From contig CACGGX010000004.1 in the NCBI GenBank assembly GCA_902572735.1, positions 7,743 through 71,742 of the forward strand: 64,000 nt of DNA. The letters run 5' to 3'. Shown piece after piece: positions 16,807-33,871 of the stretch (the first letter of the stretch is position 1; the number at the start of each line of letters is the position of its first letter). The translations under genes were made by a program, and so were the position numbers. The notes below the pieces were generated by a model. The model worked only from the letters and a program-made list of their open reading frames with translations, had not been told where the DNA came from and did no database searches. Origin of the DNA: an uncultured Alphaproteobacteria bacterium. GTDB taxonomy: Bacteria > Pseudomonadota > Alphaproteobacteria > HIMB59 > GCA-002718135.

Positions 16807-16916
16807 TAAAACTTCTATAAAAATAAATTTTGATAAAAATGAGAAATCAATAAGGTAATATTAAGAACAAATCTTAATCCAAACACAATTATAATAAAAA
16901 TAAGTTTTATAAATTT

Positions 16917-17229: not shown

Positions 17230-18072
17230 TTAATATTTAGGGCTTACACCGTAAATATTTGTATCTTTTTCTCCATCGATACAATGCCATATGAGTAAAA
17301 TTATTGAACCAGCAATTGGTATAAATGAAATTAAAACCCACCAACCAGTTCGACCTATATCATGAAGACGTCGCACAGAAACAGTCAAACTAGGTATAAC
17401 AATAAATAAATAAAAAATATTCGCAAAGATACTTTCATCAACATTGAATTGACCTGTAAGACCCGAATAAAGACCTTCTATAAATGCTAGCAGTACAGAA
17501 CCTACAATAATAAAAAGAAAAAAATACCAATATTCTGATCTTCTAGCTCTTCCTTTAAAGTCAAAATATTTAGATAAACAAATTTTTATTGCTTTAAAAA
17601 ATCCTACTTTTTTATGATGTCTGGCTTGATACACAGGTGGTTCTGTATTTTGCTGATTATTATCCTCATTAGAATTAACATTTATCTCAGGTTCAGATAA
17701 TTTTTCTTCAGAAAATTCAATTTTTTCTTTTTTACTAATTTCACTTTTAGTTGAGAGGACAGAAGAATTATATTGTATATTATCTTCATCATTATTATCA
17801 ATTACTTCATCAGAAATAGTTTCTGATACCTCTTCTATATTTGATACATTTTCCTGAATTATTGGTTCTTCTTTTATTTTTTCTTTTTGAGGTTCCTTTA
17901 CTTCTACAAACTCAGAAAATATTTCTATTTCCCTAGCCTTTTTCCATTCACCTCGTATACTTGTTTTAACCATTGTATCAGGTGTAATCGAACCTCTTTT
18001 AAAAAGATCTATAGCTATCTGATCATTACGAATAACATTTTCAGTACCATTACTATCAATAAAAATTATCAT
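17230..18072 (-). CDS. GYF_2 (DUF4339)-like N-terminal domain, acidic linker, then a DUF805 membrane domain
   Basis: 280 aa. The C-terminus GRARRSEYWYFFLF...SVRRLHDIGRTGWWVLISFIPIAGSIILLIWHCIDGEKDTNIYG is the classic DUF805 (YhaH-like) signature. The N-terminus (DSNGTENVIRNDQIAIDLFKRGSITPDTMVKTSIRGEWKKAREI) looks like the bacterial GYF_2 domain. Confidence 0.7.
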   Translation of the reverse strand: MIIFIDSNGTENVIRNDQIAIDLFKRGSITPDTMVKTSIRGEWKKAREIEIFSEFVEVKEPQKEKIKEEPIIQENVSNIEEVSETISDEVIDNNDEDNIQYNSSVLSTKSEISKKEKIEFSEEKLSEPEINVNSNEDNNQQNTEPPVYQARHHKKVGFFKAIKICLSKYFDFKGRARRSEYWYFFLFIIVGSVLLAFIEGLYSGLTGQFNVDESIFANIFYLFIVIPSLTVSVRRLHDIGRTGWWVLISFIPIAGSIILLIWHCIDGEKDTNIYGVSPKY

Positions 18073-18084
18073 TAATGCTTAAGA

Positions 18085-19326
18085 CTACATTAGATCTAAA
18101 AATGACTCAACTGGTATACTCCAATTTTGAGGTGAGTTTAGATTACAATATGGTTGACAATATTCAGATCCATCATCAAGTATATGACATTCTTCTGGTC
18201 CACCTAATATTTTACAACTTGAAGTAATGCCAATTAATTCTCCAGTCTTGGTATATAATCCTCCGCCTGAATTACCTTTATCAATTGGCGCATCAGTTTC
18301 TATATATTTCAAACCACTTTCTCTTAACCAAGGAGCACTTTCAACCATTCTAGGAGGAGGGTAATTATATTTCATTGTAATTTTACCTTCAGTAGGTTTT
18401 CCTACATATCCTCTAGGATTACCAACTGCATATACAGTATCATTAATATTAATATTATCGTAATAACCTAAATTTGGAAAAGAAATGTTGTTATCACTTC
18501 CAATATCTAAGATACATCTATCTGTTAATATATCTTCTTTTATTATTGGAACATTTCGCAACCATTGACTATTATTAGGGTCACCTGCATTTTCATTAAC
18601 TGGAATTAAATTAATAGATAAATCATCTTCATATCCATGCATTTCATAACATTGTTCTATATTTTCAAAACCAAATGCTGTTGACACTTCTTTTTCTGAA
18701 TAACCTTGATCAATAAAGTGCTCAATGTATTTACATTGATAATTAGTTACAACATGACAGTTTGTGAAAACAATACCATCGCCAATATGAACAGCTGAAC
18801 CACTACCTAATTGAAAATTATCTGATATTGTTGAAAGTTGTACATAAAATGTAGATGATTGTACCTCATCTAACAAATCTCTTACTAAATCTTTTGGCAT
18901 TTTTACTTCTATCGGAGGTGCATCCTCATCTTCATCTTTTCCTGTATCTTCTTGATTTTTTCTTAATACAGGAGGTTCAATAGTCTCAATCTCAATACCT
19001 AGTATTTTATTTACAGCTTTATAAATACATTCATTGTATTTTAGAGCTCCTAACTTTATTTCAAAAACACAAATATCTTCAATGTATTCCTGGTCTTCTT
19101 TATTTGATACTTGCTGCACACTCACAATACCTTGAGCTTCAAGAGCGCTTTTAATTGATTTTACACATTCATTTTTAGTTGAGTATTTCTTTTCTTTGAC
19201 TGATTTTTTACACTCAATATTTATAGCTTCTTTTAAATCAGCTGAATAATAAGCTGCTTCTATCTTCTCTGGTAAGAAAATTGAAGCAAATGATACTAGT
19301 ATAAGAATAGATATAAATTTACTCAT
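18085..19326 (-). CDS. Secreted trypsin-like (S1/PA clan) serine protease with a Cys-rich N-terminal domain
   Basis: 413 aa with a signal peptide (ILILVSFASIFL). The catalytic His context is GSAVHIGDGIVFTNCHVV and the catalytic Ser context is DKGNSGGGLYTKTGELIGITS. Transcribed divergently from the 19432 operon. Confidence 0.75.
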   Translation of the reverse strand: MSKFISILILVSFASIFLPEKIEAAYYSADLKEAINIECKKSVKEKKYSTKNECVKSIKSALEAQGIVSVQQVSNKEDQEYIEDICVFEIKLGALKYNECIYKAVNKILGIEIETIEPPVLRKNQEDTGKDEDEDAPPIEVKMPKDLVRDLLDEVQSSTFYVQLSTISDNFQLGSGSAVHIGDGIVFTNCHVVTNYQCKYIEHFIDQGYSEKEVSTAFGFENIEQCYEMHGYEDDLSINLIPVNENAGDPNNSQWLRNVPIIKEDILTDRCILDIGSDNNISFPNLGYYDNININDTVYAVGNPRGYVGKPTEGKITMKYNYPPPRMVESAPWLRESGLKYIETDAPIDKGNSGGGLYTKTGELIGITSSCKILGGPEECHILDDGSEYCQPYCNLNSPQNWSIPVESFLDLM

Positions 19327-19431: not shown

Positions 19432-20799
19432 ATGAGAATTTTCTTACTTTTATCTATGGTTTTTCTCTCTTTTTCACTTAAGGCTAATGAGTCTTGTGTT
19501 AAAGAAATTTTAGAAGAAAATAATTCCATTAATCTAGCTAAGAATGAGACATCAAGCTCTGAAAAAATTGGGGTAGCTAATTTATTTTATGATCATTCTC
19601 TAAACATGAAAGGTTTTATTAAGCCATCTAATTCACTATTTAAAAATTTCATTACTACCTTAAACTCAAAGATAGCTTTAGTAAGCAACGATCAAAAATT
19701 TTATAAATATACTTACGGTATTAAACCGTTAAATAATTCTGATGTAGGAAAAATTACATCATCAGAATCTTTTTACAAATGTCCTTTAGCAGCTGATCAA
19801 TGTCCTAAGCGAAGAGCTAAATTATCAAAAATATTAAAAGTGGTTGAGAAACAAGAAGACTCTCTAATAATTATTGTAACAGATTTATTTATTGGGATGG
19901 ATGAATTAATAGGCGATGGAATTAATGCAATTCGTAATCCTATAGCTGCTGCATTAGCAAGAGGAGACTCAATTGGCGTTTATGGAATAAAGAGTCAATA
20001 CGAAGGAACAATTACAGGAATATGTTCTGGCAATAATTATAATCTAGCAACTTCTAGACCATTTTATGTATTTACTATCGGTCCAAAAGAAAACGTACTC
20101 GCATTAAAAGAAATAATGGACAAAGATGTTATCTCAAAATTTGGAGAAGAAAATTTTAAATTTAATATTTATACAAATGATATTATTAAAACTCCTTTCA
20201 TTGAAAATTCTTGGCCGTCAAATACATTTGAAATTGGCGGTGGTATATCAACAGTTAATGTATTTGGAGAAGATTTAAAATTATATCAATTTAGTGTTGA
20301 TAAAAAAAGTGATCCTTTAAAAATTAAATTTGATCTTAATAATATTCAAACCCCGTACACTCTACCAGTTAAAGATTTATATGCTGAAGTTGATGTATAC
20401 GTTCAACGTAAAGACTCAGGCACTTGTTCTAATGATTGGCGATCATATGATCCTAATAAACAAAATGTAGTTTATTTTTCAGAACAAAATGGAACAAATG
20501 TATCATTTAATTTATTTGATAAATCTAAAAATGATCGAATAAGCCTTAAAAGAGATAAAAATTATATCTTTAATATTAAATATAGAGCGAAAGGTGTAGG
20601 TGTTACATCAAATGATTATTGGATGAATGAATGGAGTTTTGTTTGTGATGATATTGGAAAATATATTGAAAGTGGAACAACTTTCTTTCCAACATTAAAT
20701 TTAGCCGCTCTTGGATCAAACATGGAAGATGTGCAATCAGAAAACTTTGAGGATCAAGTTATTTCTCAAATGAACTTAGGATTTTATTTAGAGAGATAA
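19432..20799 (+). CDS. Operon gene 1: secreted protein with a degenerate vWA-like core (hypothetical)
   Basis: 455 aa with a signal peptide (MRIFLLLSMVFLSFSLKA). VANLFYDHSLNMKGF resembles a beta-strand plus a degraded MIDAS (DxSxS becomes DHSLN). SLIIIVTDLFIG resembles the vWA hhhhhTDG strand. Assignment is by eye only. Confidence 0.6.
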   Translation: MRIFLLLSMVFLSFSLKANESCVKEILEENNSINLAKNETSSSEKIGVANLFYDHSLNMKGFIKPSNSLFKNFITTLNSKIALVSNDQKFYKYTYGIKPLNNSDVGKITSSESFYKCPLAADQCPKRRAKLSKILKVVEKQEDSLIIIVTDLFIGMDELIGDGINAIRNPIAAALARGDSIGVYGIKSQYEGTITGICSGNNYNLATSRPFYVFTIGPKENVLALKEIMDKDVISKFGEENFKFNIYTNDIIKTPFIENSWPSNTFEIGGGISTVNVFGEDLKLYQFSVDKKSDPLKIKFDLNNIQTPYTLPVKDLYAEVDVYVQRKDSGTCSNDWRSYDPNKQNVVYFSEQNGTNVSFNLFDKSKNDRISLKRDKNYIFNIKYRAKGVGVTSNDYWMNEWSFVCDDIGKYIESGTTFFPTLNLAALGSNMEDVQSENFEDQVISQMNLGFYLER

Positions 20800-20800
20800 T

Positions 20801-21352
20801 ATGCGTCATATATTTTCATTAATTGTAATATCTATTTTCGTAGGACTAATAATTGTACCTGCTTATCTAGTTTCTTTTTTTGATATTGGATTTATTGGTC
20901 GTGGTGATGCAATACAAAATATTATTTTCTACATACTTGACCAAGATCCTAATATGCCAGGTGAAGAACGTGTCTGGAATGCAGAAGACTTACAATTATT
21001 AGGCATTCAACCTTTACTTATTTATTTAACAGCTTTCTGGTTTATTTTATTTATCGTGTGGATAATAATTACTGAATTTTTAAGAATTGATAGGCCTAAT
21101 AAAGCTTTTAAATTTATGTGGATTTGGTTTTTATTTTTAGCCGTTATGTTAGCTTTATCAGGATATATGACTTATTACTTTTTATATAGTCAAAAAGAAG
21201 TTTATCAATATGTAGGGGGACCACAAATAACTTCAATAATATTCTTAACAACAATTTTATCTTTAATTTTATTTTATTTGACAACATTGTTTATTACATC
21301 GAGAGTTAATAGACCAACCGTACCACTTGCTACAATTTTGATGAGGACATAA
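20801..21352 (+). CDS. Operon gene 2: 4-TM integral membrane protein (hypothetical)
   Basis: 183 aa with four hydrophobic helices (about aa 5-25, 70-92, 103-125, 142-165). Starts 1 nt after the gene 1 stop. Its stop overlaps the gene 3 start (TAATG). Confidence 0.65.
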   Translation: MRHIFSLIVISIFVGLIIVPAYLVSFFDIGFIGRGDAIQNIIFYILDQDPNMPGEERVWNAEDLQLLGIQPLLIYLTAFWFILFIVWIIITEFLRIDRPNKAFKFMWIWFLFLAVMLALSGYMTYYFLYSQKEVYQYVGGPQITSIIFLTTILSLILFYLTTLFITSRVNRPTVPLATILMRT

Positions 21353-22857
21353 TGGCTGATTGTTATTTTATAGGTATAGGTGGAACAGGAAGTAAATGTG
21401 TAAATAATTATGTTTATTCATCTGCTGCTGGTCTTGGTCCTGATCGGTTATGGATTGGAATGGTTGATCAAGATGATGCTAATGGTAATGTTGCTGAGTC
21501 CAGATCAAATATAGAAAATTATCAACGTGTAAGACGTATCCTTAGAACACCAGGACTTAGTGATATTAATGATAAAACAGATTTATTTAAAACGAATATT
21601 ACGACTCAAGTAGGTCAAACGTCTTGGTGTCCACTTCCAGGAACAGCACCAACGCTTAAAGATGTCTTCTCTTATGATTTACTTAATAAAGATTTACAAG
21701 ATACCATAGATTGTTTGTATCACCCTCAAGAAGAATTAAATTTAGAACTAGATGAAGGTTTCCGAGCAAGACCAAGTATAGGCGCTGCTGCAATTTTATC
21801 TCGTGTTCAAGAAAATGATCCTTTCTGGGTAAATATATTTAATGCCATTGACTCGGCTAAAGCTGGAACAGAAGTTCGTATCTTCCTTGTTAGTTCTATT
21901 TTTGGAGGAACTGGTGCATCTGGTTTTCCATCAATTGCTAGATTAATTCGATCTGAAATGGATAAAAGAGGTATCAGAGACGGTGTCCATTTGGGTGGCG
22001 CTCTCATGCTTCCTTATTTTAAATTTCCAAAACCAGGTGAAGATGAAATTAAAGAAGTGGCATATGCTGAAAGTTTCTTAGAGCAATCAAGAGGTGCTTT
22101 AGATTATTATCACCGCTTATTTGAAAAAGAACAACGTAAAACTTTTGATCAATTGTATTTAGTTGGTTGGGATCCATTAATTGAATTACCAGTTTTTGAG
22201 AAAGGTGGAAATCTACAACGTAATCCTGCTTTACTTCCAGAATTATTTACTTCTCTTGCGGCTTCACGTTTCTTTATGTCGAATTCAGTAGATAATGGCA
22301 TTTTCCATATAGCTAGAAACGATGCGAATGCCTTTTCATGGGATGATTTTCCTGAAATTAATGATCAACAAAAAATTGTAAAAGATAATTTATCACAAAT
22401 GACAAGAACTGCTCTTGCTTATAGAGAAATTTATTATCCTTACTTGGTAGATCAATGGCGAAAAGTAAAAAATGAAAGTTGGTTTCGAAATACATTATTA
22501 AAGCAAGGTGTAGATTTTAATAATGATGAAACATCATTAAATTTTAATAATCTTTTAGCATACTTTGAAAATTATTTAGACTGGCTTGCTAATATGATTC
22601 ACTTTAGTCAAAATGCTACAGTTCAAGGTATTGATCTTGTGGATGTAAACATGTTTTCACAATATGAAAATAGCCAAGTAACTATAAGTGATAAAGTTAG
22701 AGATCATCAACTAAAGCAATTCAATTCATTAATTAGTGGCGTTAATAGTAGCAGTCTTGCAAAAGTATTCTTAAAAATGAATTATTCTCGTGTTCCAAAA
22801 AATAGAACTGGTATTGGTGCCTTTGTCGGAGCTTTATATGAAAGTTGTAAGAGTTAG
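21352..22857 (+). CDS. Operon gene 3: tubulin/FtsZ-superfamily-like GTPase (divergent, Tubulin_2-like)
   Basis: 501 aa with no TM or signal peptide. The T1-loop-like motif is CYFIGIGGTGSKCV (nt 21373-21396). The T3-like motif is GFRARPSIGAAA, compared with FtsZ GAGANPEVGRKAA. The T4 signature is SSIFGGTGASGFPSIA (nt 21901-21924), compared with tubulin/FtsZ GGGTG[ST]G. A GAGGA Shine-Dalgarno sequence lies 5 nt upstream. Confidence 0.7.
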   Translation: MADCYFIGIGGTGSKCVNNYVYSSAAGLGPDRLWIGMVDQDDANGNVAESRSNIENYQRVRRILRTPGLSDINDKTDLFKTNITTQVGQTSWCPLPGTAPTLKDVFSYDLLNKDLQDTIDCLYHPQEELNLELDEGFRARPSIGAAAILSRVQENDPFWVNIFNAIDSAKAGTEVRIFLVSSIFGGTGASGFPSIARLIRSEMDKRGIRDGVHLGGALMLPYFKFPKPGEDEIKEVAYAESFLEQSRGALDYYHRLFEKEQRKTFDQLYLVGWDPLIELPVFEKGGNLQRNPALLPELFTSLAASRFFMSNSVDNGIFHIARNDANAFSWDDFPEINDQQKIVKDNLSQMTRTALAYREIYYPYLVDQWRKVKNESWFRNTLLKQGVDFNNDETSLNFNNLLAYFENYLDWLANMIHFSQNATVQGIDLVDVNMFSQYENSQVTISDKVRDHQLKQFNSLISGVNSSSLAKVFLKMNYSRVPKNRTGIGAFVGALYESCKS

Positions 22858-22859
22858 AT

Positions 22860-25800
22860 ATGGTTAAAAGTCTTCTCCCACCACTCAATGATGATCATGC
22901 AGTAGCTATCCCAAGTACGCATGGTAAATGGACGGTTGATGAAAATTCTATTCTCGGACGTATCGCTAATGGCTTAAAAGATATTACAATTGAACAAGAA
23001 GTAGAAGATCTTATTTCTATACCTGATGTTTGGGCAAGAGTTGCCGTAGTTAAAAATGCTCTCTTTGATGATAAACATCCATTAAATTATACTGTTAGAG
23101 GCGAGTGGAGAGGTTTACTGGCTCTTTTTGCTTTAATGCCGTATCACGGAAAAAATTTAGAAACAATTCCAGTAAACATTCAATCCTTAAAAAATAATCC
23201 CTATCAAGTTCCGCCAAACGAAGAGGGCGTACTTGGTAATTTTGCTGAAGTGTTAGCAACGATCACACCAGGGACTACTATTGCACAAGGTCAAAATTGG
23301 TCGGAGATTGGAATAATCAAACTTGGTGGTAAGCCAGTAGGTCTTTTAACGCCAAATACTATTGTTTCTCCTGCAAGATATTATTCAGAATCTATTCCAG
23401 GCGGCATTGATTGGTTTCAAACTGGTAAATTTATTGATCCATGTGAAGCAGCGAATATTCAACAGGAACAATTTTTAGTTCTTATACGTTTCCTTGATGA
23501 AATGATTACAGGACTTCAGCAAACAGCTATGGCTGATAAAATAAATTTTGATGGTATTTTAGGTGAACTTACAAGCTTTAAAGAAGATTGTCAAAAACGA
23601 ATTAGTTCTAGTCAATCTAGTGCGGTTGATATTTTAAACTATAAAAAATTTAATGTTGTTCTTCGTGTACCACAACAACCAATTTATACTTTATTACAAA
23701 ATATTTATGAAATAGATACCGGTGGTGTCGCTGCATTTGATACCTTAATTAAAGTTAGACCTGAACTTAATTCAGTTACCAATGGCATTATTTTAATTGA
23801 TGATGAAATACCAAGTGGTATCGGTAAAGCAGCATCAGATGTAAGATTATGGAATACTATTACAGTTGAAACATTAATTGGAGATAAACAAGCAAAAAAA
23901 CGTATCCAAAAAGAAGTATCAGATGCTGGTTATCTTTTCTTACATCCAGAAGAATTATTTACAGAAAAATTATGTTTACCTGCGAGCTCTGAAAAGATTA
24001 TGAATCATAATGATCTTTTAGCTAAACCGTATTTGTTACCTTTTAATCCAATTGTTTTATCTTTTATGACGGCATCGCAGTTAAGAAATAATTTTGATAT
24101 CAAAGATAATGGCACAAGTATTAATGTATCTCTTCGTTTAGAACTTCAAAATCATATGGGTCAAAAAACTGAATACGTAATTCGAAAAGAATATTTACAA
24201 GCAAATATAGAAAATAGACTTGAATTACCATTATCAGCTCATATTTGGCCTAACTTTGTGCATCCAGCATGGAATCAATATTTTATGATGTATGCATGTA
24301 ACTTGCAGGCATCAATTGCTCTTCGATCAGTATTTTCCATTCAAGGACTCTCAAAAGAATTGGATAATTTTGAAAGTTCGGATCAAAAAATTAAAGCTCT
24401 CAATCAATTAAAAGATTTTACTGTAAAAATGTCTAATAGGTTACCTTTACAAGAAACTACTAACGTTGTTGAATTACATTTGACTGAACATCCTCCAGAG
24501 GCGCTAGTTTGTGATGCAAGTATGATTATGGACCTGCATGAATTCATACCAAGTAATGAACGTTCTGCGATGGGAATTATTCTAGCTGGAAAACCAGAAG
24601 AGGTAATGGTTAACAATGATGCATTAAGTTTTGGAATAGATTTTGGTACAACAAATACCTGTGCTTATATGCGTGTTAATGAAGAAATTCCAAAAGAAAT
24701 AAATTTTGAGAATAGATTATATTCACCATTTTCACCAAGTGATGACAAAGAATATTTAAATTACCAATTACGAGAATTTGTTCCTGAAAGAAATGTAGTA
24801 TTACCTTTCCAAACAATTTCAAGAGATAGAAATCTAGGAAAGAAACAAGGAGATATTTCATTTCCTTTACCTTTATGGAGTGCCTTTATATATTACGTTG
24901 GTGACATGAGGGATGGTTTAGATGATATTTTAAACCCAGTTCAAAGACCGCTTCATTTCAATCTTAAATGGTCTAAAGCAGAAGCAGATAGAGAGCGAAT
25001 AGAAATTTATCTAGCTCAAGTTGCTCTACAATGTATCGCGGAGGGATTGGCTAGAGGAGCAGATTTAGATAAAATAAATTGGAGTTTTTCTTATCCTGAA
25101 GCTTTTACGCCAACTCAATTGCAAAATTTTAGACGTCTATTTAATAGTGGATTACGAAAAGCTTTACAGCCATTTAATAGCAATGGTAATTTAATTCAAA
25201 CAGAGCAAAAAAGTGAAAGTTTATCAAGTGCACTTTATTTTTCATCTTTTAAAAACGCTCCATTCACCGAAAGTGTTGTAACTATTGATATTGGCGGTGG
25301 AACTTCTGATATTTCTATTTGGCAAAATCTCAATTTATTATGGAGAAGTTCAGTAACAATAGCCGGTCAACATATTCTTATAAATTATTTAAATAAAAAT
25401 CCTAATTTAATAGAGTCTCTTTCATCAAATGATAGAGTAATGCAAGAAGCGTACGAACAGTTAACAAATATTAAATCTAAAGGAGACCCGACTGCCCTGA
25501 GGAATGCTATTGAAGTCATAGTAAATTCAAAAAATTTTGCTGAAGCAATTAATTCACGTTTCCATATTGTAGATGGTCAAGATAATGGAAGAAATTTAAG
25601 ACTTATAGCTGAATTAGCGCTAGCAGGGATTCTTTTTTATGCCGGTCAAATGGTTAATCATTTAACAAATCAAGGTTTATACGACCCAAGTAAAACAAAA
25701 CAATTTAGTATTTGTCTCGGTGGACGAGCAAGTCTTTTATATAAAGTATTATTTAGTGACTCAGAAGATCGAAATGGCTTATGTCGTTTATTTGCAGCAG

Positions 25801-26315
25801 CATCAAATAATACTGTTGATATTGATAAAGTTAACTTTGTATTCACTGATAAACCAAAACATGAAGTTGCTCATGGCTTGTTGGTAGATCAAAGAGGAAT
25901 AGCTAATTTAGATACTTCTAAGCGTTGTTATGATGTTTTATTAGGTGAAGATATTGATGTAGGTGGCGAAGTAACAAAATATAACCAATCAGCAAGTGAT
26001 TTAGATCTAGATAAGGAATGGCGCGCAATAAGCTTAACAAATATGAAGCAATTTGCAGAAATGTTGAACGCAAATACAGGAATAGTTTTTGAAGTATCAA
26101 GACAAGTTGAGAATATGATTGTATCTAAAATAAATACTAACCTTGTGACAGCTCAAGAAGAGTTACAAGATGCTAAAAAAGATGGTCTTGATTATTTATC
26201 AGATGATATGAAGGGAGAGACATCAATTATAGAACCTCCATTCATTGTAGCAATAAAAGAAATACTGGAAAGAGTTTCGAAAAAAGAAATCAATCTTCTA
26301 TCGAAAAAAATTTAA
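22860..26315 (+). CDS. Operon gene 4: 1151-aa protein with an unknown ~580-aa N-terminal region fused to an Hsp70/actin-fold (ASKHA) ATPase domain
   Basis: Ordered ASKHA motifs are present. Phosphate-1 is FGIDFGTTNTCAY (aa 591-603, nt 24630-24668), compared with DnaK GIDLGTTNS. Connect-1 is SESLSSALYF (aa 785-794), compared with NEPTAAALAY. Phosphate-2 is VVTIDIGGGTSDISIW (aa 806-821; DIGGGTSD core at nt 25287-25310), compared with DLGGGTFDVS. The adenosine motif is FSICLGGRASLL (aa 949-960), compared with LVGGSTRIP. Confidence 0.7.
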   Translation: MVKSLLPPLNDDHAVAIPSTHGKWTVDENSILGRIANGLKDITIEQEVEDLISIPDVWARVAVVKNALFDDKHPLNYTVRGEWRGLLALFALMPYHGKNLETIPVNIQSLKNNPYQVPPNEEGVLGNFAEVLATITPGTTIAQGQNWSEIGIIKLGGKPVGLLTPNTIVSPARYYSESIPGGIDWFQTGKFIDPCEAANIQQEQFLVLIRFLDEMITGLQQTAMADKINFDGILGELTSFKEDCQKRISSSQSSAVDILNYKKFNVVLRVPQQPIYTLLQNIYEIDTGGVAAFDTLIKVRPELNSVTNGIILIDDEIPSGIGKAASDVRLWNTITVETLIGDKQAKKRIQKEVSDAGYLFLHPEELFTEKLCLPASSEKIMNHNDLLAKPYLLPFNPIVLSFMTASQLRNNFDIKDNGTSINVSLRLELQNHMGQKTEYVIRKEYLQANIENRLELPLSAHIWPNFVHPAWNQYFMMYACNLQASIALRSVFSIQGLSKELDNFESSDQKIKALNQLKDFTVKMSNRLPLQETTNVVELHLTEHPPEALVCDASMIMDLHEFIPSNERSAMGIILAGKPEEVMVNNDALSFGIDFGTTNTCAYMRVNEEIPKEINFENRLYSPFSPSDDKEYLNYQLREFVPERNVVLPFQTISRDRNLGKKQGDISFPLPLWSAFIYYVGDMRDGLDDILNPVQRPLHFNLKWSKAEADRERIEIYLAQVALQCIAEGLARGADLDKINWSFSYPEAFTPTQLQNFRRLFNSGLRKALQPFNSNGNLIQTEQKSESLSSALYFSSFKNAPFTESVVTIDIGGGTSDISIWQNLNLLWRSSVTIAGQHILINYLNKNPNLIESLSSNDRVMQEAYEQLTNIKSKGDPTALRNAIEVIVNSKNFAEAINSRFHIVDGQDNGRNLRLIAELALAGILFYAGQMVNHLTNQGLYDPSKTKQFSICLGGRASLLYKVLFSDSEDRNGLCRLFAAASNNTVDIDKVNFVFTDKPKHEVAHGLLVDQRGIANLDTSKRCYDVLLGEDIDVGGEVTKYNQSASDLDLDKEWRAISLTNMKQFAEMLNANTGIVFEVSRQVENMIVSKINTNLVTAQEELQDAKKDGLDYLSDDMKGETSIIEPPFIVAIKEILERVSKKEINLLSKKI

Positions 26316-28610
26316 GTGATTAAAAAAATTATCTTTTTTTTAATATTAATAGTCTTTTCAAATAATTTATTTGCATCAGAACAGAAGAGTATACGTATAG
26401 ATGTACAAAAATTTAAATGCGATTATAGAGGAGAAATTCCTCCAGAAGAAATATTTCAAAGATTTAATATTATTACTGAAGCAGAAAAAGAGGCTAATAA
26501 AAACTATATTATTGCTGAATTAAAAAAAAATAATTCAGCTCATGAATTATTTTGTAATAATCAACCTATAGCAATAGAATTTAATTATTCAATATTAGAA
26601 AATCTTCCCGTACCTATCAAAAAAGATCTTCCTGTGCCAAAAAATGAAGAAAGTGAAAATAAACAACAGTCATTAATAATAAATAATGATGATCAAACAA
26701 ATGAAGATGATTTAGAAGAAAAGCCGTTAACTGAAGGAGAAAAGAAAAGGCAAGAAAAACAAAAACAGAAAGAAAAACAAATAAAAGATGAAGAGGAAAA
26801 ACTAGATAAAGGTAAAGTTGTTAAATCTTTTATTGAAAATCAAAAAGATAAAGATGAGAACAAAATATTATTTTCAACTTCTATTGAAGAACTATCTAAA
26901 AAATTTGCTCAATATAAAGAAAATTATGAGGAGAGTGACAACTTTAACAGAACTCAATTAGAAGCATTAAAGACTGATTTTCAATCTATTAAAAATATTA
27001 TTGCAAATAATTATATGGGTTTAATAAATACCTATGATCAAATTAAATTATTTTGTAATGAATTAGATGACTTCAAATTTAAAGAAAATAAATCTGGTGG
27101 AAAAGAATTAAAAAATAATTGTAAAACTATAACAGAAGATTGGACTTCGCTTAATTGGATTAAAGTTGGTAAGCAAAATTTTATTGATTATTTTAATTTA
27201 GAAATCTATCAAATTGATTCTGAAATTAAAATTTATATAGAAAATATAGTTAGCAAAATTGAGAATATTAAAAAAGCTGAAGAAAAAAGAAAAGAAGATG
27301 AAAGAAAAGCTGATGAAAAAAGAAAAGAAGATGAAAGAAAAGCTGAAGAAAAAAGGAAAGAAGAAGAAAGACAAAAAAAATTAAAAGAAGCTGAAGAAAA
27401 AAAGAAAAAAGAAGAAGCTGAAAAGAAAAAAGAAGCTGAACGTCAAAAGAAATTAGAACAAAAAAAGAAAGAAGAAGAAGAAAAGAAAAAAGAAGCTGAA
27501 CGTCAAAAGGAATTAAAACAAATAGAAAAAGATAAAAAAGATGAATATGAAAATATTATAGTATCAATTGAAAAAATTGAAATTCAAGAATTAAACGAAA
27601 ATTTTGAAAAATTAGCCGAAAGTTATGAAGAATTATCTAATAGAGATTCATTAAGTGTAAATATTGATAAAGATTTAGATAATCTTAATGAACAAAGAGC
27701 TGAATTAGTTAGCGATGGTATTTTTGAAACAATTAAAGAAGTTAAAGATAATATAAGTATAAATGAATTACTTGATGAAGATAAAAAAGAAGATCTTTTA
27801 GAAAATCTTAAAAATAATGTTGAAAGTAAAATAGAAAAAAGAAAAAAGGAAATTGATAATTATATTAAGATTATTGAAGGTAAAATTAATTCTCAAGATC
27901 AAGCATTTAGATCTAAAATTGATGAATTAGAAAATCGAAATACTCTTTATTTATTCATTATTATTGGAACTATAGTAATATTAGGTGGTGCTATAATTTA
28001 TTTAATTCTTCGAAGATCAAAAGATGATGTACCATCTCAAACATCATCCATACGTAATACGAGTATACTTCAGCAAGAAATTGATGAATTAAAACAAATT
28101 ATACGTAACAGTCAACAACAATCAAATGTTCAACAAACACCTAATGTTACACAACAACAACCTCAAGAAGAGGTAAGACAACCAACGGAACAAGAATTAT
28201 TTGCACAAAAATTAAATGATTTAGGGCATGATTATTTAGATGCAATTACAGATCCAAATAAAATAGAAGGATTTAAAGAAAAATGGCAAGCGATTGGACT
28301 AGATAGAGAAAGCCGAGTAGGGGCATCAACAGTTACTACTCTTAAAAAAGATAATAGACCGTTTGAGAGATGTAATTTCTGGGCTGTGCCAATTAGAAAT
28401 AACTATAGAATATTTGGTGGAAGAATATTAAGAACGAATTCTGTTGCTTTAACTGCAGATGATGGCCGTATGGCAAGAGATCTCTTAACGGGCATATTTG
28501 ATATTGAATACGGAACAAGCTTTCAAATACGACAGCAAGGTGTAGCTGTAATGAAAAATCAAATATTTGAGATTACTACTAAAGGTAAAATTACTATTCC
28601 GAAAACCTAA
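26316..28610 (+). CDS. Operon gene 5: bitopic envelope protein (signal peptide, extracytoplasmic domain, E/K/R-rich helical rod, TM, cytoplasmic C-terminal domain)
   Basis: 764 aa. The GTG start directly abuts the gene 4 stop and yields a proper signal peptide (MIKKIIFFLILIVFSNNLFA|SEQ). The ER/K block runs AEEKRKEDERKADEKRKEDERKAEEKRKEEERQKKLKEAEEKKKKEEAEKKKEAERQKKLEQKKKEEEEKKKEAERQKELKQ. The TM is LYLFIIIGTIVILGGAIIYLIL followed by RRSK (about nt 27945-28010). A Q-rich linker precedes a ~140-aa C-terminal domain homologous to that of gene 6. Confidence 0.7.
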   Translation: MIKKIIFFLILIVFSNNLFASEQKSIRIDVQKFKCDYRGEIPPEEIFQRFNIITEAEKEANKNYIIAELKKNNSAHELFCNNQPIAIEFNYSILENLPVPIKKDLPVPKNEESENKQQSLIINNDDQTNEDDLEEKPLTEGEKKRQEKQKQKEKQIKDEEEKLDKGKVVKSFIENQKDKDENKILFSTSIEELSKKFAQYKENYEESDNFNRTQLEALKTDFQSIKNIIANNYMGLINTYDQIKLFCNELDDFKFKENKSGGKELKNNCKTITEDWTSLNWIKVGKQNFIDYFNLEIYQIDSEIKIYIENIVSKIENIKKAEEKRKEDERKADEKRKEDERKAEEKRKEEERQKKLKEAEEKKKKEEAEKKKEAERQKKLEQKKKEEEEKKKEAERQKELKQIEKDKKDEYENIIVSIEKIEIQELNENFEKLAESYEELSNRDSLSVNIDKDLDNLNEQRAELVSDGIFETIKEVKDNISINELLDEDKKEDLLENLKNNVESKIEKRKKEIDNYIKIIEGKINSQDQAFRSKIDELENRNTLYLFIIIGTIVILGGAIIYLILRRSKDDVPSQTSSIRNTSILQQEIDELKQIIRNSQQQSNVQQTPNVTQQQPQEEVRQPTEQELFAQKLNDLGHDYLDAITDPNKIEGFKEKWQAIGLDRESRVGASTVTTLKKDNRPFERCNFWAVPIRNNYRIFGGRILRTNSVALTADDGRMARDLLTGIFDIEYGTSFQIRQQGVAVMKNQIFEITTKGKITIPKT
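27276..27374 (+). repeat. In-frame 33-nt tandem repeat x3 inside gene 5
   Basis: The units are 27276-27308, 27309-27341 and 27342-27374. Each follows gctgaagaaaaaagaaaagaagatgaaagaaaa with a few substitutions. They encode AEEKRKEDERK / ADEKRKEDERK / AEEKRKEEERQ. Confidence 0.85.
27421..27509 (+). repeat. Direct repeat: two identical 29-nt copies spaced 60 nt apart, inside gene 5
   Basis: aaaagaaaaaagaagctgaacgtcaaaag occurs at 27421-27449 and again at 27481-27509, encoding KKKEAERQK both times. Confidence 0.85.
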
Positions 28611-30790
28611 TGTTAAAAAAAAATATTTATTTTATTTTAATAGTTATTTTTTTAATTAGTAAAAATTTATTTGCCTATAACATTCCAAATAAAAAAAACT
28701 CTTCTATTATTGATCGATTTTTTAAAGATGGTGAATATGTCCTTATAGAAGATGAAAAATTTATTCCTTTCTTAGATTTACTTAATACTAAGAATCTAAA
28801 ATTATTAGAATCATTTCCATATAAAATTTATATAAAACTAGAAGAAGAAAGATATGATTATAAAGTTGCTTATTTTTTTAATAACTATGATGACTTATCA
28901 CTTAATTATATAAGAGTTCATTGGGCGCCAACTATTGGAAATAATAAATATAACTATTCTTTTGATTGTATCAAACCAAATAAAAATGATGTTTGTAATG
29001 GTTTTAATAATCCAATTAAAGGTGAGCAAGATTTAAAAATTCTTGATAAAGTATTTTTTAAAGGTAATTATTATTCTATACCATATAAAGATATAGAAGA
29101 TAATAAATACTGTCTTTTTTCAAGAAAATATAAGCTTACAGCAAATAATGAGAAGGTTAATTACACTATTGATTATTGGACATGTTCTAATAACATAAAT
29201 TCTAAAAATATATCTAATGCAGTTCATTTTGAGCTACTTAATTCAATTAAAATTGACAACAACATAACAATTAAACAAATTAATGAACTTGTTCCATATG
29301 TTATTGATAATGTAAAAAAAGGAATAAATAATAAAAATAAAGCTGAAGAGAAAAAAAAGAAAGAGGAAGAAGCTAAAAAGAAAGCTGAAGAGAGAAAAAA
29401 GAAAGAGGAAGAAGCTAAAAAGTTAGCTGAAGAGGAAAAAAAGGAAGCTGAACGTCAAAAAAAATTAGAAGAAAAAAAGAAAGAACTTGAAAAGAAAAGA
29501 AAAGAAGAGGAAGAAAAAAGAAGAATTGAAGAAGAATTAAAAAGACAAGCAGAAGAAAAGAAAAGAAAACAGGAAGAAGAAAGAAAAAAAAGAGAAGCTG
29601 AAGAAAAAAGAAAAAAAGAATTACAAAAAAATATTCAAGATTCTAAATCAGCATTATCAGCTTCTAAAGCTAATCAAAATAAATTAATTACAGAAACAAA
29701 AAATTTAGAATTACAATTAAGAGAAATCAAATCAGCAAATACAATAAATAAGATTAATATAGTTAAACAAAAAACTGATAATATATATGATAATATACAA
29801 TCTAACCTAAAATCATTTAATACGAAGTATAAAAAAGTAGAAAAACTATTCAAAAATAATCCTGAAACAGAATTAAATTTAATCTTTAATGAATTTAAAT
29901 TATTAAATACACAGTTTAAAAATCAAAGAAAAGTAATAGAAGAATTATACTCTGATATTGAAAACAATTATTTATCTAAAAAATCTAAATTTGAAAAAGA
30001 ATTAAGAGATAAAGAATTAACTGATGCCTTTATGCGTTCAGATCAAGCTTATATATATACCTATGTGCCAATCGGAGTAGCCATTGTACTATTATTAATA
30101 CTTATCTGGAGATGGAACTCATCAGGAAGACAAATTGCTTATTTGAATAATAAAATAAGAGATCTAGAAAAAAATAACGAGAAATCAAGTTCACCAACAA
30201 CTCAGGTATCGAAGTCTTTTGATAAAATTGAGAAACAAGAGGAAACTATCACTACATCTATAAAAACTCCTGAAAAAAGTAATATTAATGAAGAAGAAGA
30301 AGAAGAAGAAGAAGTAGAAAATAAAAATATAGAAGAGCCGATAAGCAATGAAATCAAAAAATTGAATAACTTGATTGATGATAAAACGTTTATGGATAAA
30401 TATCAAAATGCTGTTAGTGATTTAAATAGCTTAAGATCTTTTACGGACGAATTTAAAGTTAAAGGTTTAGAAAGGTTTTCATCACAAAGAGTAGAAGAGG
30501 GCGTTGAATTAGAAATCAGTCAGCGTATTGTTGATAAAGCGATGTTCTGGTTAATTGAACACCCGCAAACATTTGAATTACTAATATTACCTGGAAGAGA
30601 TTTATGGTCCCGATCTCGCTTATTATTACAAGATACAAGTCGCTTTGGTTATTTAAACTTTAATGGTATTTTTGATTTATCAGAAGGTGAAGAATTTAAA
30701 TTAACAAATTTTGCTATCGTATCAGTGACAGATAAGAAAAAATATAAAATTGAACAAAAAGGAGAATTAATACTTCCTAAATCTAATTAG
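28610..30790 (+). CDS. Operon gene 6: paralog of gene 5 (signal peptide, extracytoplasmic domain, E/K/R helical rod, TM, poly-Glu linker, shared cytoplasmic C-terminal domain)
   Basis: 726 aa. The ATG overlaps the gene 5 stop (TAATG). The signal peptide is MLKKNIYFILIVIFLISKNLFA|YN. The ER/K block runs KAEEKKKKEEEAKKKAEERKKKEEEAKKLAEEEKKEAERQKKLEEKKKELEKKRKEEEEKRRIEEELKRQAEEKKRKQEEERKKREAEEKRKKELQ. The TM is YVPIGVAIVLLLILIW followed by RW (about nt 30044-30109). The C-terminal domain aligns with gene 5: FW......GR.L...S..L..D..R.....GIFD...G..F......KG...PK. Confidence 0.7.
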   Translation: MLKKNIYFILIVIFLISKNLFAYNIPNKKNSSIIDRFFKDGEYVLIEDEKFIPFLDLLNTKNLKLLESFPYKIYIKLEEERYDYKVAYFFNNYDDLSLNYIRVHWAPTIGNNKYNYSFDCIKPNKNDVCNGFNNPIKGEQDLKILDKVFFKGNYYSIPYKDIEDNKYCLFSRKYKLTANNEKVNYTIDYWTCSNNINSKNISNAVHFELLNSIKIDNNITIKQINELVPYVIDNVKKGINNKNKAEEKKKKEEEAKKKAEERKKKEEEAKKLAEEEKKEAERQKKLEEKKKELEKKRKEEEEKRRIEEELKRQAEEKKRKQEEERKKREAEEKRKKELQKNIQDSKSALSASKANQNKLITETKNLELQLREIKSANTINKINIVKQKTDNIYDNIQSNLKSFNTKYKKVEKLFKNNPETELNLIFNEFKLLNTQFKNQRKVIEELYSDIENNYLSKKSKFEKELRDKELTDAFMRSDQAYIYTYVPIGVAIVLLLILIWRWNSSGRQIAYLNNKIRDLEKNNEKSSSPTTQVSKSFDKIEKQEETITTSIKTPEKSNINEEEEEEEEVENKNIEEPISNEIKKLNNLIDDKTFMDKYQNAVSDLNSLRSFTDEFKVKGLERFSSQRVEEGVELEISQRIVDKAMFWLIEHPQTFELLILPGRDLWSRSRLLLQDTSRFGYLNFNGIFDLSEGEEFKLTNFAIVSVTDKKKYKIEQKGELILPKSN
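29342..29425 (+). repeat. In-frame 42-nt tandem repeat x2 (plus a diverged third start) inside gene 6
   Basis: Unit 29342-29383 is gctgaagagaaaaaaaagaaagaggaagaagctaaaaagaaa. Unit 29384-29425 is gctgaagagagaaaaaagaaagaggaagaagctaaaaagtta. They differ at only 3 positions and encode AEEKKKKEEEAKKK / AEERKKKEEEAKKL. Confidence 0.85.
30290..30313 (+). repeat. (GAA)8 trinucleotide microsatellite inside gene 6 (poly-Glu linker)
   Basis: Eight consecutive gaa codons encode EEEEEEEE, between the TM segment and the C-terminal domain. Confidence 0.9.
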
Positions 30791-31970
30791 CATTTAATAT
30801 AAAACTAAGCTCTTTTCTTTTATCTTCACTATCAAGCGCAGAGATCGTAATATCATTTGCTCCTGGCTCAACGTCAAATAAAATTATTTCAAAATTACCA
30901 GCACTATCTAAATCAGCTACATCATCGTTAACTAGCACTTCAATAGCTTTAATTTTTTTCATGTTAATAGTACCTTGAACAGTTACAATTCCTGATCCAT
31001 CAATATTACAAGGATCATTTGATTTTAAAATTTTGCATGGCTCATAAACATTAATTGCATTTGGCCCAGACACAACTGGTTGCACCACAGCCACATCATC
31101 TAAACTATTAATACATGAATTAAGCGCATAACCAATCAAACCTTCTTCAGTAATAATTAATGCCCAGATACCATCAGTGATACTGAGTAAACGAACTTTT
31201 TGATCTTTATTTAGAGTTTTATATTTTTTTGCATTATCAGAGTTAACTGAGCGTAAATTGACAGCATCACATGAAATTTTATCTGTCATCTCTATTGGTG
31301 AAACATTAATTTTTGGTGGTTTCTTTTTAAGTGTATCAAGTGTTTTTTTAAGAAGATCTATGTCATCATTTAATTTTGCTACTTCCTCTTCTTTTTGTTT
31401 TTGTAGATTATCTATATCCGTTTCTAAATCTTTTATACTTTGATTGCGGTTTTTTACATCAGTATTAGTATCTGATAAATCTGATTGTAATTTTTTTAAT
31501 TTTTTTTCAAGATCAGCAAATTCTTCCTTTAAATTATTAAATTGAACATCTCTAACAGTAAGACTAGCAACATAATGCCAATTCTGTTCAGTATTTGCTT
31601 TGAAAATAGTGGCATCTATTTTTCCCTTACTAATATTGCCTTCAATAGTATTATTTTTATTTGATTTATTTGTTGCAGGTCCTTTAAAGAAATTTCCGTT
31701 AAGCTTCATATCTGCAAATATATAATTTAATCTTGGTGCAAAAATAGTAATTGTTTGGTCACTTTCATTGTGCTCTACAATTAAAAGTCCAATTTTATCA
31801 TTACCTTTAAAAAGTCCTATAAGAGGAAGACTTCTAGCAAATTTATCAAGTTTACTATCTTCTTTACATACTCCTCTACATTCTATTCCTTGATAAGTTC
31901 CAGAGAAATCAAAAGCATATAAATTACCTGAAAAGAAAATAGTGCATAAAATTATTAACAATTTTTTCAT
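30783..31970 (-). CDS. Secreted coiled-coil protein with a bacterial SH3-like domain and a C-terminal Ig/beta-sandwich-like region
   Basis: 395 aa with a signal peptide (LLIILCTIFFSGNLYA). The coiled coil is FADLEKKLKKLQSDLSDTNTDVKNRNQSIKDLETDIDNLQKQKEEEVAKLNDDIDLLKKTLDTLKK. The SH3b-like segment is AVNLRSVNSDNAKKYKTLNKDQKVRLLSITDGIWALIITEEGLIGYA. Its 3' end overlaps operon gene 6 by 8 nt, in convergent orientation. Confidence 0.6.
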   Translation of the reverse strand: MKKLLIILCTIFFSGNLYAFDFSGTYQGIECRGVCKEDSKLDKFARSLPLIGLFKGNDKIGLLIVEHNESDQTITIFAPRLNYIFADMKLNGNFFKGPATNKSNKNNTIEGNISKGKIDATIFKANTEQNWHYVASLTVRDVQFNNLKEEFADLEKKLKKLQSDLSDTNTDVKNRNQSIKDLETDIDNLQKQKEEEVAKLNDDIDLLKKTLDTLKKKPPKINVSPIEMTDKISCDAVNLRSVNSDNAKKYKTLNKDQKVRLLSITDGIWALIITEEGLIGYALNSCINSLDDVAVVQPVVSGPNAINVYEPCKILKSNDPCNIDGSGIVTVQGTINMKKIKAIEVLVNDDVADLDSAGNFEIILFDVEPGANDITISALDSEDKRKELSFILNAN

Positions 31971-33773: not shown

Positions 33774-33871
33774 ATCTAAAATTAATTATATTATGGTAAT
33801 ATTAAGAAATAATCATAATCCCAACATAATTTGAACAACAAATAGTTGAAATTAAAAATTAAAAATATTCT

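Follow-up and report, generated by a model that had tools for sequence, protein, structure and literature searches.

What kind of machine is encoded where a tubulin/FtsZ-like GTPase and a giant actin-fold ATPase stand side by side in one operon, together with secreted and membrane-spanning partners? The question is raised by six genes, here called g1 to g6, in a 64,000-nt stretch of alphaproteobacterial DNA (the window, to whose coordinates all positions below refer), which has a G+C content of ~28%, resembles marine single-cell and metagenome assemblies and has the Pelagibacteraceae (SAR11) as its nearest named relatives. As a structural description, we hold with high confidence that the six-gene operon represents, in SAR11, a mobile and widely distributed module of five protein families that extends across the envelope. 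Gene structure, folds, nucleotide motifs, hydropathy topology, synteny, docking-domain homology, selection, island polymorphism and plasmid carriage were all established computationally. As to function, we tentatively propose that the operon is an envelope-surveillance conflict system directed against invaders, most likely phages.

A first-pass annotation of the window had reported six same-strand open reading frames (ORFs) with very tight junctions (Table 1). The coordinates were reproduced exactly, and the junctions were confirmed by direct reading: the TAA of g1 is followed after 1 nt by g2, g2 and g3 overlap by 1 nt (TAATG), the TAG of g3 is followed after 2 nt by g4, the TAA of g4 runs directly into the GTG of g5, and g5 and g6 again overlap (TAATG). 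The six ORFs are real genes and not chance ORFs, since all have homologues and since the ratio of non-synonymous to synonymous substitution (dN/dS) between strains is low, being at most 0.25 for g1-g4 and 0.02-0.15 for the cytoplasmic domains of g5 and g6. Pattern scans for promoters and terminators around the operon performed no better than on shuffled sequence in this AT-rich DNA. Topology was called from Kyte-Doolittle hydropathy and inspection throughout.

The identity of g3 as a tubulin/FtsZ-like protein, which had been read from its nucleotide-binding loops, is upheld by profile and structure searches. The protein passes the Pfam family Tubulin_2 (PF13809) with 35.8 bits against a cut-off of 27 over residues 140-272, and nearly all g3 homologues listed in a precomputed table carry PF13809; the match to PF00091 (Tubulin/FtsZ) is weak (E = 0.005) and below the cut-off. 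The T1-like loop GIGGTGSK (residues 8-15) is invariant in the g3 alignment A1 of 19 sequences, where the T4-like loop takes the form SSIFGGTGASGF; in g3 itself the latter reads FGGTGASG (residues 184-191), a variant (GGTGASG) of the signature GGGTG[ST]G. The AlphaFold2 model of g3 has a predicted local distance difference test score (pLDDT) of 85 and a predicted template-modelling score (pTM) of 0.89, and its best Foldseek matches in the PDB are tubulins and TubZ, with probability 1.0 and TM-scores of 0.22-0.28 over ~280-300 columns. Since these TM-scores are so low, the GTPase core must be very divergent, and it is followed by a helical C-terminal domain. Membership in Tubulin_2, which the first-pass annotation had left open, can now be assigned: g3 belongs there, in the FtsZl1 family of Makarova and Koonin 2010 (PMC2875224). 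The architecture described for that family is an FtsZ-like domain followed by an extended coiled coil and a helical C-domain, ~1,000 aa in all (PMC2875224), and its neighbourhood tables hold only coiled-coil forms of 760-1,200 aa, whereas the subfamily of g3 (itself 501 aa) measures 476-515 aa and its model shows the helical C-terminal domain and no long coiled coil. On this ground g3 represents a distinct short subfamily inside Tubulin_2.

Two familiar settings of such a GTPase had been set aside earlier and can likewise be rejected here. The operon is not part of the division cluster, as Pfam finds no FtsZ_C domain in g3, there is neither an FtsZ C-terminal peptide nor a dcw context, and the neighbours are protease, DUF805 and transglutaminase-like genes. 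Nor is it a TubZRC or PhuZ partition system, as the operon partners are membrane or secreted proteins, TubZ is one of many matches with low TM-scores, and 50,697 phage records hold no match.

The gene that follows, g4, encodes a much larger NTPase whose C-terminal half had been assigned to the ASKHA (Hsp70/actin) fold with all motifs in order. In the 22-sequence alignment A2 the phosphate-1 (VGIDFGTT), phosphate-2 (IDIGGxTSDISIW) and adenosine (GGNGS) motifs are invariant or nearly so and occur in this order. The model of g4 (pLDDT 84.5, pTM 0.73) retrieves with Foldseek the nucleotide-binding domain (NBD) of DnaK/Hsp70 as well as MreB, with probability 1.0, E ~3e-8 and a target TM-score of up to 0.59, and a g4 profile searched against PDB sequences matches MreB at E = 6.5e-5 over the ASKHA half only. 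Thus the structure searches recover the expected folds for both NTPases, and the ASKHA assignment holds. At the level of named families the cut-offs are not reached for MreB_Mbl (19.9 bits against 27), EutA (20.2 against 27), FtsA (15.3 against 31.8) or TIGR00904 (20.6 against 365), and the MreB, EutA and FtsA family matches cover the phosphate-2 region only. We rejected an Hsp70/DnaK chaperone as the identity of g4, there being no PF00012 match and the ASKHA domain standing C-terminal to ~580 aa of unrelated sequence, and also an SrfABC-type locus, SrfB being absent from the Pfam matches of g4 at E up to 0.1.

The N-terminal ~580 aa of g4 have no sequence match in Pfam, NCBIfam or the PDB, and Foldseek with the whole model is dominated by ASKHA matches. 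This half is nonetheless modelled with good confidence beyond residue ~56 and has invariant residues, namely D56, E82-W83-R84-G85 and many W and P. An exhaustive profile search at E <= 1e-30 collected 1,487 clusters (50% identity) of the G4 family, nearly all of 1,050-1,180 aa and matching end to end, and this family is without a Pfam family or a name. Two Nostocales loci (L041:17403-19595 and L053:18314-20512) have an extra gene of ~730 aa, 55-56% identical to G4 residues ~340-1090, which is a partial G4 duplicate that includes the ASKHA half and lies inside the downstream gene array.

The two last genes, g5 and g6, had been described as paralogous bitopic rods with a shared cytoplasmic domain of ~140 aa. 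The layout and the common domain stand, and the domain is shorter than first thought, ~110-130 aa: by hydropathy each protein has an N-terminal hydrophobic, signal-like segment, an outside region, a second transmembrane segment and the common C-terminal domain, which aligns between g5 (residues 623-744) and g6 (residues 577-704) at 27% identity with E = 3e-9 in BLASTP. The outside region contains a stretch of ~100 aa made up to 70-86% of E, K, R, D and Q, and in g6 a cytoplasmic linker with a poly-Glu run (GAA x10 at 30290-30319) lies between the transmembrane segment and the C-terminal domain. The E/K-rich helices are encoded by GAA/AAA-rich tandem repeats with periods of 15-60 nt, and these repeats are the reason for the low G+C and the purine excess of this DNA (24-25% G+C in window 26000-30000, against 31-33% in g3-g4, with an excess of A on the coding strand). 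Matches to TIGR02794 (TolA) reach 31.6 bits for g5 and 15.1 for g6 against a cut-off of 59.45, with E = 1e-7 at best, and are confined to the E/K-rich stretch; we therefore treat them as compositional and do not regard g5 and g6 as TolA homologues.

The common C-terminal domain, which we call the docking domain, connects g5 and g6 to proteins of other phyla. An iterative hidden Markov model (HMM) search started from the two C-terminal domains found a ~110-aa domain in genes directly downstream of G4 at 49 loci. Because HMM iteration can drift, the homology was retested by profile-profile comparison, in which hhalign relates the SAR11/alphaproteobacterial profile to the cyanobacterial/other profile with a probability of 95.8% and E = 7e-9. 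Upon inspection, the docking domain is common among the small genes downstream of G4 and is not shared with G4. At least one transmembrane segment is predicted in 48 of 92 docking-domain proteins, many of which share the topology of g5 and g6, and the proteins without a predicted segment have one or two copies of the domain. A word-indexed search with the docking-domain alignment A4 returned 8 short proteins. Judged from these profiles, g5 and g6 belong to a cross-phylum class of variable proteins with one common cytoplasmic docking domain. In cyanobacterial loci as many as six docking-domain genes stand in tandem, and some of the encoded proteins have the domain twice; in Calothrix (L081:18554-20665) two docking domains are fused to a seven-repeat WD40 propeller.

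At the other end of the operon, g1 had been described as a signal-peptide protein with a degenerate vWA-like core. Its signal-like N-terminus is visible by hydropathy and inspection, and alignment A3 of the G1 family shows a conserved YxDGSxSMxGYV motif, i.e., a DxSxS of the metal ion-dependent adhesion site (MIDAS) type, together with a VIVTDL strand; a lipobox Cys in most family members makes most of the homologues lipoproteins. In the window protein the MIDAS-like motif is indeed degenerate (D54-H-S-L-N58 against the family consensus DGSxS). The vWA fold itself is not confirmed by HMMER or hhalign, as three tests were negative or confined to the MIDAS strand: Pfam detected no vWA domain in 26 family members, a family profile searched against PDB sequences detected none, and an hhalign comparison with YegL and YfbK, which are genuine vWA proteins of E. 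coli, detected none. The vWA assignment of g1 would thus stay at the level of the motif.

For g2, hydropathy gives four hydrophobic segments, in agreement with the four-transmembrane protein recorded earlier. It is homologous to the c2 family of other phyla, a membrane protein of ~160 aa (hhalign probability 95.6%, E = 1.3e-8), and the two groups have a cytoplasmic tail motif in common, RP[ST]VP[LM] in one and KY[TI]PxG in the other. We infer that g2 is a membrane tether for g3, because the two genes are translationally coupled and because the g2-G3 pair is kept in most of the Selenomonadales-type variants that are without G4.

The gene families also co-occur beyond this genome. A scan of one genome per species gave 548 g3 relatives, of which the best 80 loci were analysed, with co-occurrence tallied from tblastn coordinates. 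Both tblastn and ORF clustering show a conserved order of G1, the ~160-aa membrane protein, G3, G4 and then one to six more genes. G4 directly follows G3 at 65 of 76 loci, G3 is itself directly preceded by a g2-like gene at 72 of 79 (including the variants without G4), G1 is present at 52 of 69, and a docking-domain gene is found downstream in 45 of the 54 G4-positive loci; all five families occur together at 38 of 50 G4-positive loci. The module is found in Alphaproteobacteria, Cyanobacteria, Poribacteria, Acidobacteriota, Bacteroidota, Negativicutes, Ignavibacteria and Chlorobi. The earlier statement that no characterised machine has this composition agrees with our searches: PADLOC, NCBIfam, Pfam, plasmid annotations and the literature yielded none, and literature searches gave no description of the G3-G4-docking-domain unit.

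Beyond the five families, a pair of ZorA/ZorB-like stator genes follows the core at 15 of 54 loci; it comprises a protein with an OmpA domain and a MotA_ExbB protein with a long helical tail, and matches the PADLOC models of ZorB at E = 2e-15 and of ZorA at E = 1e-6. In three Acidobacteria loci (L022:18765-20612, L024:14007-15740 and L031:18584-20362) a ~600-aa Ion_trans_2 protein with a K+-channel-type pore stands directly after the MotB-like gene, which it overlaps by 4 nt in L024, i.e., with translational coupling. This protein is a candidate effector. At the corresponding position Poribacteria have a conserved protein of ~321 aa with no assigned function. Variants without G4 occur in rumen and gut Selenomonadales and Quinella (L034, L044-L048, L056, L073, L075, L076 and L084); in most of them G3 comes after a small membrane protein and a YrbL/PhoP-regulatory-network kinase-like protein, and most also have a different small gene on the opposite strand. 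These variants suggest that the g2-G3 pair is the minimal core.

Selection acts very unevenly on these proteins. In a comparison of dN/dS between the window and two sister assemblies, g3 has dN = 0 over 501 codons with dS at 0.04-0.28 (dN/dS 0), g4 has a dN/dS of 0.05, g1 of 0.08-0.12 and g2 of 0.18-0.25; the values rise to 0.41-0.51 in g6 and 0.62-0.68 in g5 (against L002). Within the last two proteins the docking domains are strongly conserved, with 99% identity and a dN/dS of 0.02 in g5 and 96-97% identity in g6 (dN/dS range for the two, 0.02-0.15), while the outside residues 411-545 of g5 are only 27% identical and reach a dN/dS of 1.33, and the outside N-domain of g6 is 25-27% identical and escapes tblastn altogether in L001, where the match begins at residue 338. 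A highly constrained cytoplasmic core is thus joined to fast-changing outside parts, a pattern that would be expected of sensors coupled to a conserved core. Values of dS are heterogeneous along the operon, and recombination therefore contributes to this mosaic.

The operon is also dispensable. Ten further SAR11 loci encode a GYD protein identical to that of the window (14266-14583), and the operon is missing in 10 out of 10; the presence/absence polymorphism among close strains that the first-pass annotation had put forward as a check is thus found. Three of these strains (L091, L092 and L097) keep both borders of the island, GYD and ABM on the left and SIR2, recombinase and MlrC on the right, at 76-100% protein identity, and GYD and SIR2 lie 5.4-7.5 kb apart in them, compared with 20.5 kb for the window. 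The operon is the cargo of a hypervariable, swappable island. Comparison with loci L091-L100 places the hypervariable slot at window ~14600-34900, and some sisters carry almost nothing in it. The cargo of other sisters includes a DNA methylase with PD-(D/E)XK proteins, a ResIII helicase, DUF2130 and ARPP-1 together with AAA_15/AAA_23 ATPases, and SASA and Acyl_transf_3/SGNH genes, surface-polysaccharide acyltransferases among them; immediately before its GYD gene, L095 also encodes KAP NTPases, TerB and an enzyme of the PvuRts1I/SRA type. The SIR2 neighbour gene itself is CobB-like and was rejected as a defence SIR2.

Elsewhere, relatives of g4 with the same architecture are found on five cyanobacterial plasmids, one of which, 47.5 kb in length, is MOBP-mobilizable; most copies of the module are chromosomal. 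The nearest flanking genes of the 80 loci are heterogeneous, with 117 Pfam families among 119 proteins. Taken together, presence and absence in near-identical strains, plasmid carriage and unrelated flanks make the module dispensable and mobile. It does not appear to be phage-borne, as the 50,697 phage genome records gave no match to it and the viral contigs of IMG/VR gave one weak hit, to the ASKHA domain only.

On these grounds we tentatively read the operon as an envelope-surveillance conflict system, a reading suggested by its island context, plasmid carriage, diversification confined to the putative sensors and the tandem arrays of adaptor domains, as well as by the ZorAB-like and ion-channel partners and a published conflict prediction for systems with tubulin, vWA and HSP70 proteins (PMC7159879). 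Three layers can be envisaged. A cytoplasmic NTPase core would consist of the GTPase G3 and the giant ASKHA ATPase G4; the four-transmembrane G2 would hold G3 at the inner membrane by its conserved cytoplasmic tail; and the secreted G1 would work with variable proteins, here G5 and G6, that end in the ~110-aa docking domain. For this scheme we infer G2-G3 tethering, binding of docking domains by G4, polymerisation, sensing and an anti-phage outcome. The outside domains and ~15-nm charged helices of G5 and G6, along with G1, would register phage adsorption, tail penetration or a breach of the peptidoglycan, and the signal would pass the membrane to the invariant docking domains. These may engage G4 much as PilN is engaged by PilM or bitopic divisome proteins by FtsA. 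NTP-dependent assembly of G3 (with GTP) and G4 (with ATP) at the membrane site could then amplify the signal, and the assembly would block entry, seal the envelope locally or arrest the cell. Relatives in other phyla would couple this core to a proton-driven stator like ZorAB and, in some cases, to an ion-channel protein as well. The narrower proposition that this is cytoskeletal-effector immunity, in which trans-envelope sensors trigger local G3/G4 assembly, sometimes with a ZorAB-like motor, and so stop phage entry, is possible, although we regard it as doubtful.

Several observations weigh against the surveillance reading. The six window proteins, and the G1 and G4 homologues tested from other loci, match no PADLOC model, and the SAR11 operon has no recognisable effector (nuclease, toxin or pore). 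When searched with PADLOC and Pfam, the nearest flanking genes of the 80 loci showed no clear enrichment for defence genes, with three Uma2, two SNase and one methyltransferase among 119 proteins. Relaxed constraint on low-complexity helices, together with recombination, could account for the divergent outside domains without an arms race, and the island location is not specific to defence, as SAR11 hypervariable regions also hold surface-biosynthesis genes. Furthermore, envelope machines with housekeeping roles, e.g., PilMNOP or the divisome with Tol-Pal, are equally similar in composition, and function is for this whole family a matter of computational prediction.

The resemblance to housekeeping machines is the basis of the main rival account, which we judge somewhat less likely than surveillance, that the module is a non-immune accessory machine for envelope remodelling or a trans-envelope cytoskeleton, as proposed for FtsZl1 operons (PMC2875224). 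Here a tethered tubulin-like polymer and an FtsA-like ATPase would organise bitopic, periplasm-spanning rods and a lipoprotein, with a TolQR/MotAB-like stator and an OmpA-type anchor elsewhere, for constriction, budding, repair or reshaping, e.g., in vesicle formation, outer-membrane tethering or cell-cell junctions. The parts do parallel FtsZ-FtsA, the bitopic divisome proteins and TolQRA-Pal, in that tubulin and actin folds, TolA-like helices, a lipoprotein and MotA/OmpA-like partners are all represented; dN = 0 in g3 is as in polymer-forming cytoskeletal proteins, and the missing PADLOC match and effector in the window, as well as the published prediction for FtsZl1 operons (PMC2875224), point the same way. 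Against this, the module is dispensable and mobile (strain polymorphism, plasmids and unrelated flanks), the stator partner resembles the long-tailed ZorA and not TolQ/ExbB, and remodelling poorly explains why diversification is limited to the outside domains and why cyanobacteria have tandem arrays of docking-domain genes.

An ASKHA protein with two paralogous bitopic helical proteins and a secreted or lipoprotein partner might instead form a scaffold that assembles, anchors or exports a surface structure (a fibre, adhesin or pilus-like organelle) after the manner of PilM-PilN/PilO-PilP or GspL-GspM. The secreted neighbours (protease, SH3-like and transglutaminase-like) would suit such a scaffold, and hypervariable outside domains are also typical of organelles under phage or grazer selection. 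We nevertheless consider it improbable, as genes for a secretin, pilin, usher, sortase or export ATPase are missing from the operon and its vicinity, both in the window and in the 80 loci, the N-out/C-in orientation of g5 and g6 is opposite to that of PilN/PilO, and many cyanobacterial docking-domain proteins are without a predicted transmembrane segment and apparently soluble; moreover, we know of no tubulin-like GTPase among the parts of pilus or GspL-type alignment complexes. Far less credible still is a TubZ/ParM-type partition or maintenance module of the carrying island or plasmid. Relatives on cyanobacterial plasmids, TubZ among the structural matches of g3 and an island with a tyrosine recombinase and flanking repeats might recall one, but most copies are chromosomal, neither a DNA-binding adaptor nor a centromere-like repeat array lies beside g3 and g4, four of the six proteins belong to the membrane or the periplasm, and the searches of phage records and viral contigs described above gave at most the one weak ASKHA-only hit. 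To our knowledge, a unit of ~10 kb is also far larger than any partition system.

Among described systems the FtsZl1 operons (PMC2875224), whose function in membrane remodelling is itself predicted only, are the nearest, and the module appears to be a variant of these computationally predicted systems. Apart from the Tubulin_2 match and the T1/T4 motifs of g3, the two have in common a patchy distribution across phyla and membrane and secreted partners, including a MIDAS-motif protein, and the FtsZl1 pair of 'B7' and COG1360 corresponds to the MotB/OmpA-type gene beside a membrane protein in relatives of the module. The vWA partners of FtsZl1, however, are COG2304 proteins detectable by sequence, whereas G1 is a distinct secreted family missed by vWA profiles; the 2010 paper describes neither G4 nor the g2 tether family nor the docking-domain proteins. 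What the module adds to such systems is a new adaptor domain and three families without a name, namely the proteins G4 and G1 and the tether g2. Only one long-form operon tabulated there (Magnetospirillum amb2957-amb2961; PMC2875224, Additional file 5) includes a DnaK-like gene, encoding a COG0443 protein of 1,626 aa. Because this operon ends with that protein, an actin/Hsp70-fold partner may recur in other FtsZl1 branches.

A second point of comparison is provided by Kaur et al. 2020 (PMC7159879), who predicted modules of tubulin/vWA and HSP70 proteins to be NTP-dependent conflict systems that use multimeric assemblies. Their GAP1-N2 systems likewise bring together proteins of the tubulin superfamily, vWA proteins, HSP70-fold proteins and variable linked genes; this logic fits the tandem adaptor-domain genes of the module, including the WD40 fusion. 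The core of GAP1-N2, however, is a TRAFAC GTPase (GAP1) with an FNIII-repeat protein, and the window operon has neither, the six proteins giving no P-loop GTPase or FNIII match. The tubulin and HSP70 themes of GAP1-N2 are also non-overlapping and mainly found in Firmicutes and Actinobacteria, whereas the NTPases of the module are adjacent and occur in Gram-negative phyla and Cyanobacteria, and the HSP70 of GAP1-N2 is canonical and accompanied by GrpE or DnaJ, unlike the ~1,100-aa G4 with its novel N-terminal half.

In Zorya, phage invasion is sensed at the envelope and signalled via a cytoplasmic tail (Hu et al. 2024, PMC11946911). The recruitment of soluble proteins at the membrane by an envelope-anchored sensor, as proposed here, would be alike, and so are the ZorA-like and ZorB-like genes that follow the core in the 15 of 54 related loci. 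The window operon is nevertheless not a Zorya system, as it has no ZorA or ZorB and none of its six proteins has a PADLOC match, and no homologues of ZorC, ZorD, ZorE, ZorF or ZorG were found in the window or in related loci. The long helix of Zorya is cytoplasmic, whereas those of g5 and g6 are predicted to lie outside the inner membrane, and the partners in Zorya are a DNA-binding protein and a nuclease in place of a tubulin-like GTPase and an actin-fold ATPase. The architecture is probably also similar to those of FtsZ-FtsA with Tol-Pal and of PilM-PilN/O-PilP, in which a cytoplasmic fold is coupled via bitopic tails to periplasmic rods and a lipoprotein, and relatives of the module also have a stator of the MotAB family and its OmpA-type anchor. 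The module does not belong to either group, however, given that an FtsZ_C domain, an FtsZ C-terminal peptide and a dcw, tol or pil context are all missing, that g4 is far below the MreB and FtsA cut-offs, that g5 and g6 are opposite to PilN/PilO, and that the module is accessory and mobile.

FtsZl1/Tubulin_2 is the most divergent branch of the tubulin/FtsZ superfamily, and around its short form there is now a defined, compact and syntenic parts list, consisting of a tether, a GTPase, a giant actin-fold ATPase, a common docking domain and variable, putatively sensing outside domains. Tractable carriers are available in the plasmids of Picosynechococcus (strains PCC 7003 and 73109) and in the cultured Pelagibacter strain FZCC0015, whose genome encodes a g4 homologue. 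If both NTPases cooperate at the membrane, tubulin and actin folds would be united in one prokaryotic machine outside division. The genomes of SAR11 are streamlined and rarely hold known defence systems; that an accessory operon of 11 kb, whose putative sensors diversify between near-identical strains, sits in a slot otherwise filled by restriction-modification-like genes would point to phage-host dynamics in the ocean. Should the proposition of cytoskeletal-effector immunity be true, a previously unrecognised class of prokaryotic immunity would be present in SAR11, the most abundant marine bacteria, and would spread horizontally across at least seven phyla. The link to a ZorAB-like stator suggests that sensing at the envelope, as in Zorya, may work with effector partners beyond those described so far.

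Table 1. Operon genes, with subdivisions of g4, and neighbouring features in the window; positions of g1 to g6 are those of the ORF listing
Feature	Position	Strand	Description
g1	19432-20799	+	Secreted, MIDAS-like DxSxS and TDL motifs; candidate periplasmic vWA-like component
g2	20801-21352	+	Four-transmembrane inner-membrane protein, conserved cytoplasmic C-terminal tail (RPTVPLA)
g3	21352-22857	+	501 aa; short FtsZl1/Tubulin_2 GTPase, helical C-terminal domain; cytoplasmic
g4	22860-26315	+	1,151 aa
g4 N-terminal half, residues ~1-587	22860-24620	+	Conserved domain(s), no recognised fold family
g4 C-terminal half, residues ~588-1151	24621-26315	+	ASKHA (Hsp70-NBD/actin-fold) ATPase
g5	26316-28610	+	GTG start; bitopic; E/K-rich helix 27246-27545, transmembrane segment residues 546-564, docking domain 28263-28592
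g6	28610-30790	+	Bitopic; E/K-rich helix 29330-29644, transmembrane segment residues 482-500, docking domain 30434-30769
Left 56-nt direct repeat	16851-16906	.	Left border of ~17-kb cargo block
DUF805 inner-membrane protein	17230-18072	-	Three transmembrane segments; Pfam DUF805 E = 1e-30
Serine protease	18085-19326	-	Secreted, trypsin/HtrA-like; Pfam Trypsin_2 E = 1e-15; divergent from g1
orf395	30783-31970	-	Secreted coiled-coil/SH3-like; convergent with g6, 8-nt overlap; weak SH3_3 and coiled-coil matches
Right 56-nt direct repeat	33792-33847	.	Right border of ~17-kb cargo block
Tyrosine recombinase	35924-36982	+	Phage-integrase family; Pfam Phage_integrase E = 1.6e-16; right island border

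The immediate surroundings of the operon show how the cargo is delimited. The two copies of the 56-nt direct repeat are identical at 44 of 56 positions, against a maximum of 37 of 56 in shuffled border zones, and it is within the left copy that the sister strains L093, L098 and L094 lose synteny with the window. The phage-type integrase recorded earlier at ~5 kb is a Phage_integrase gene 5.1 kb downstream; with 45 and 36 bits against cut-offs near 330 it is not XerD or XerC, and sister strains without the operon have it at 76-98% identity. The repeat may be an att-like site for this non-Xer tyrosine recombinase. Within the cargo block, the DUF805 gene is missing in the sister strains without the operon, and DUF805 genes (cluster c10) lie near the module in nine loci of SAR11, Sphingomonadaceae and Selenomonadales, which hints at a loose functional association. 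The protease has an N-terminal hydrophobic segment, weak matches to the HtrA/DegP family and 58-72% identity between strains, and orf395, which also begins with a hydrophobic segment, is missing in the sister strains without the operon. The distant SAR11 locus L007 has homologues of both at the same positions, with 26% identity for the protease and 24% for orf395. In SAR11 the unit extends to the divergent protease and the convergent orf395, which travel with the operon.

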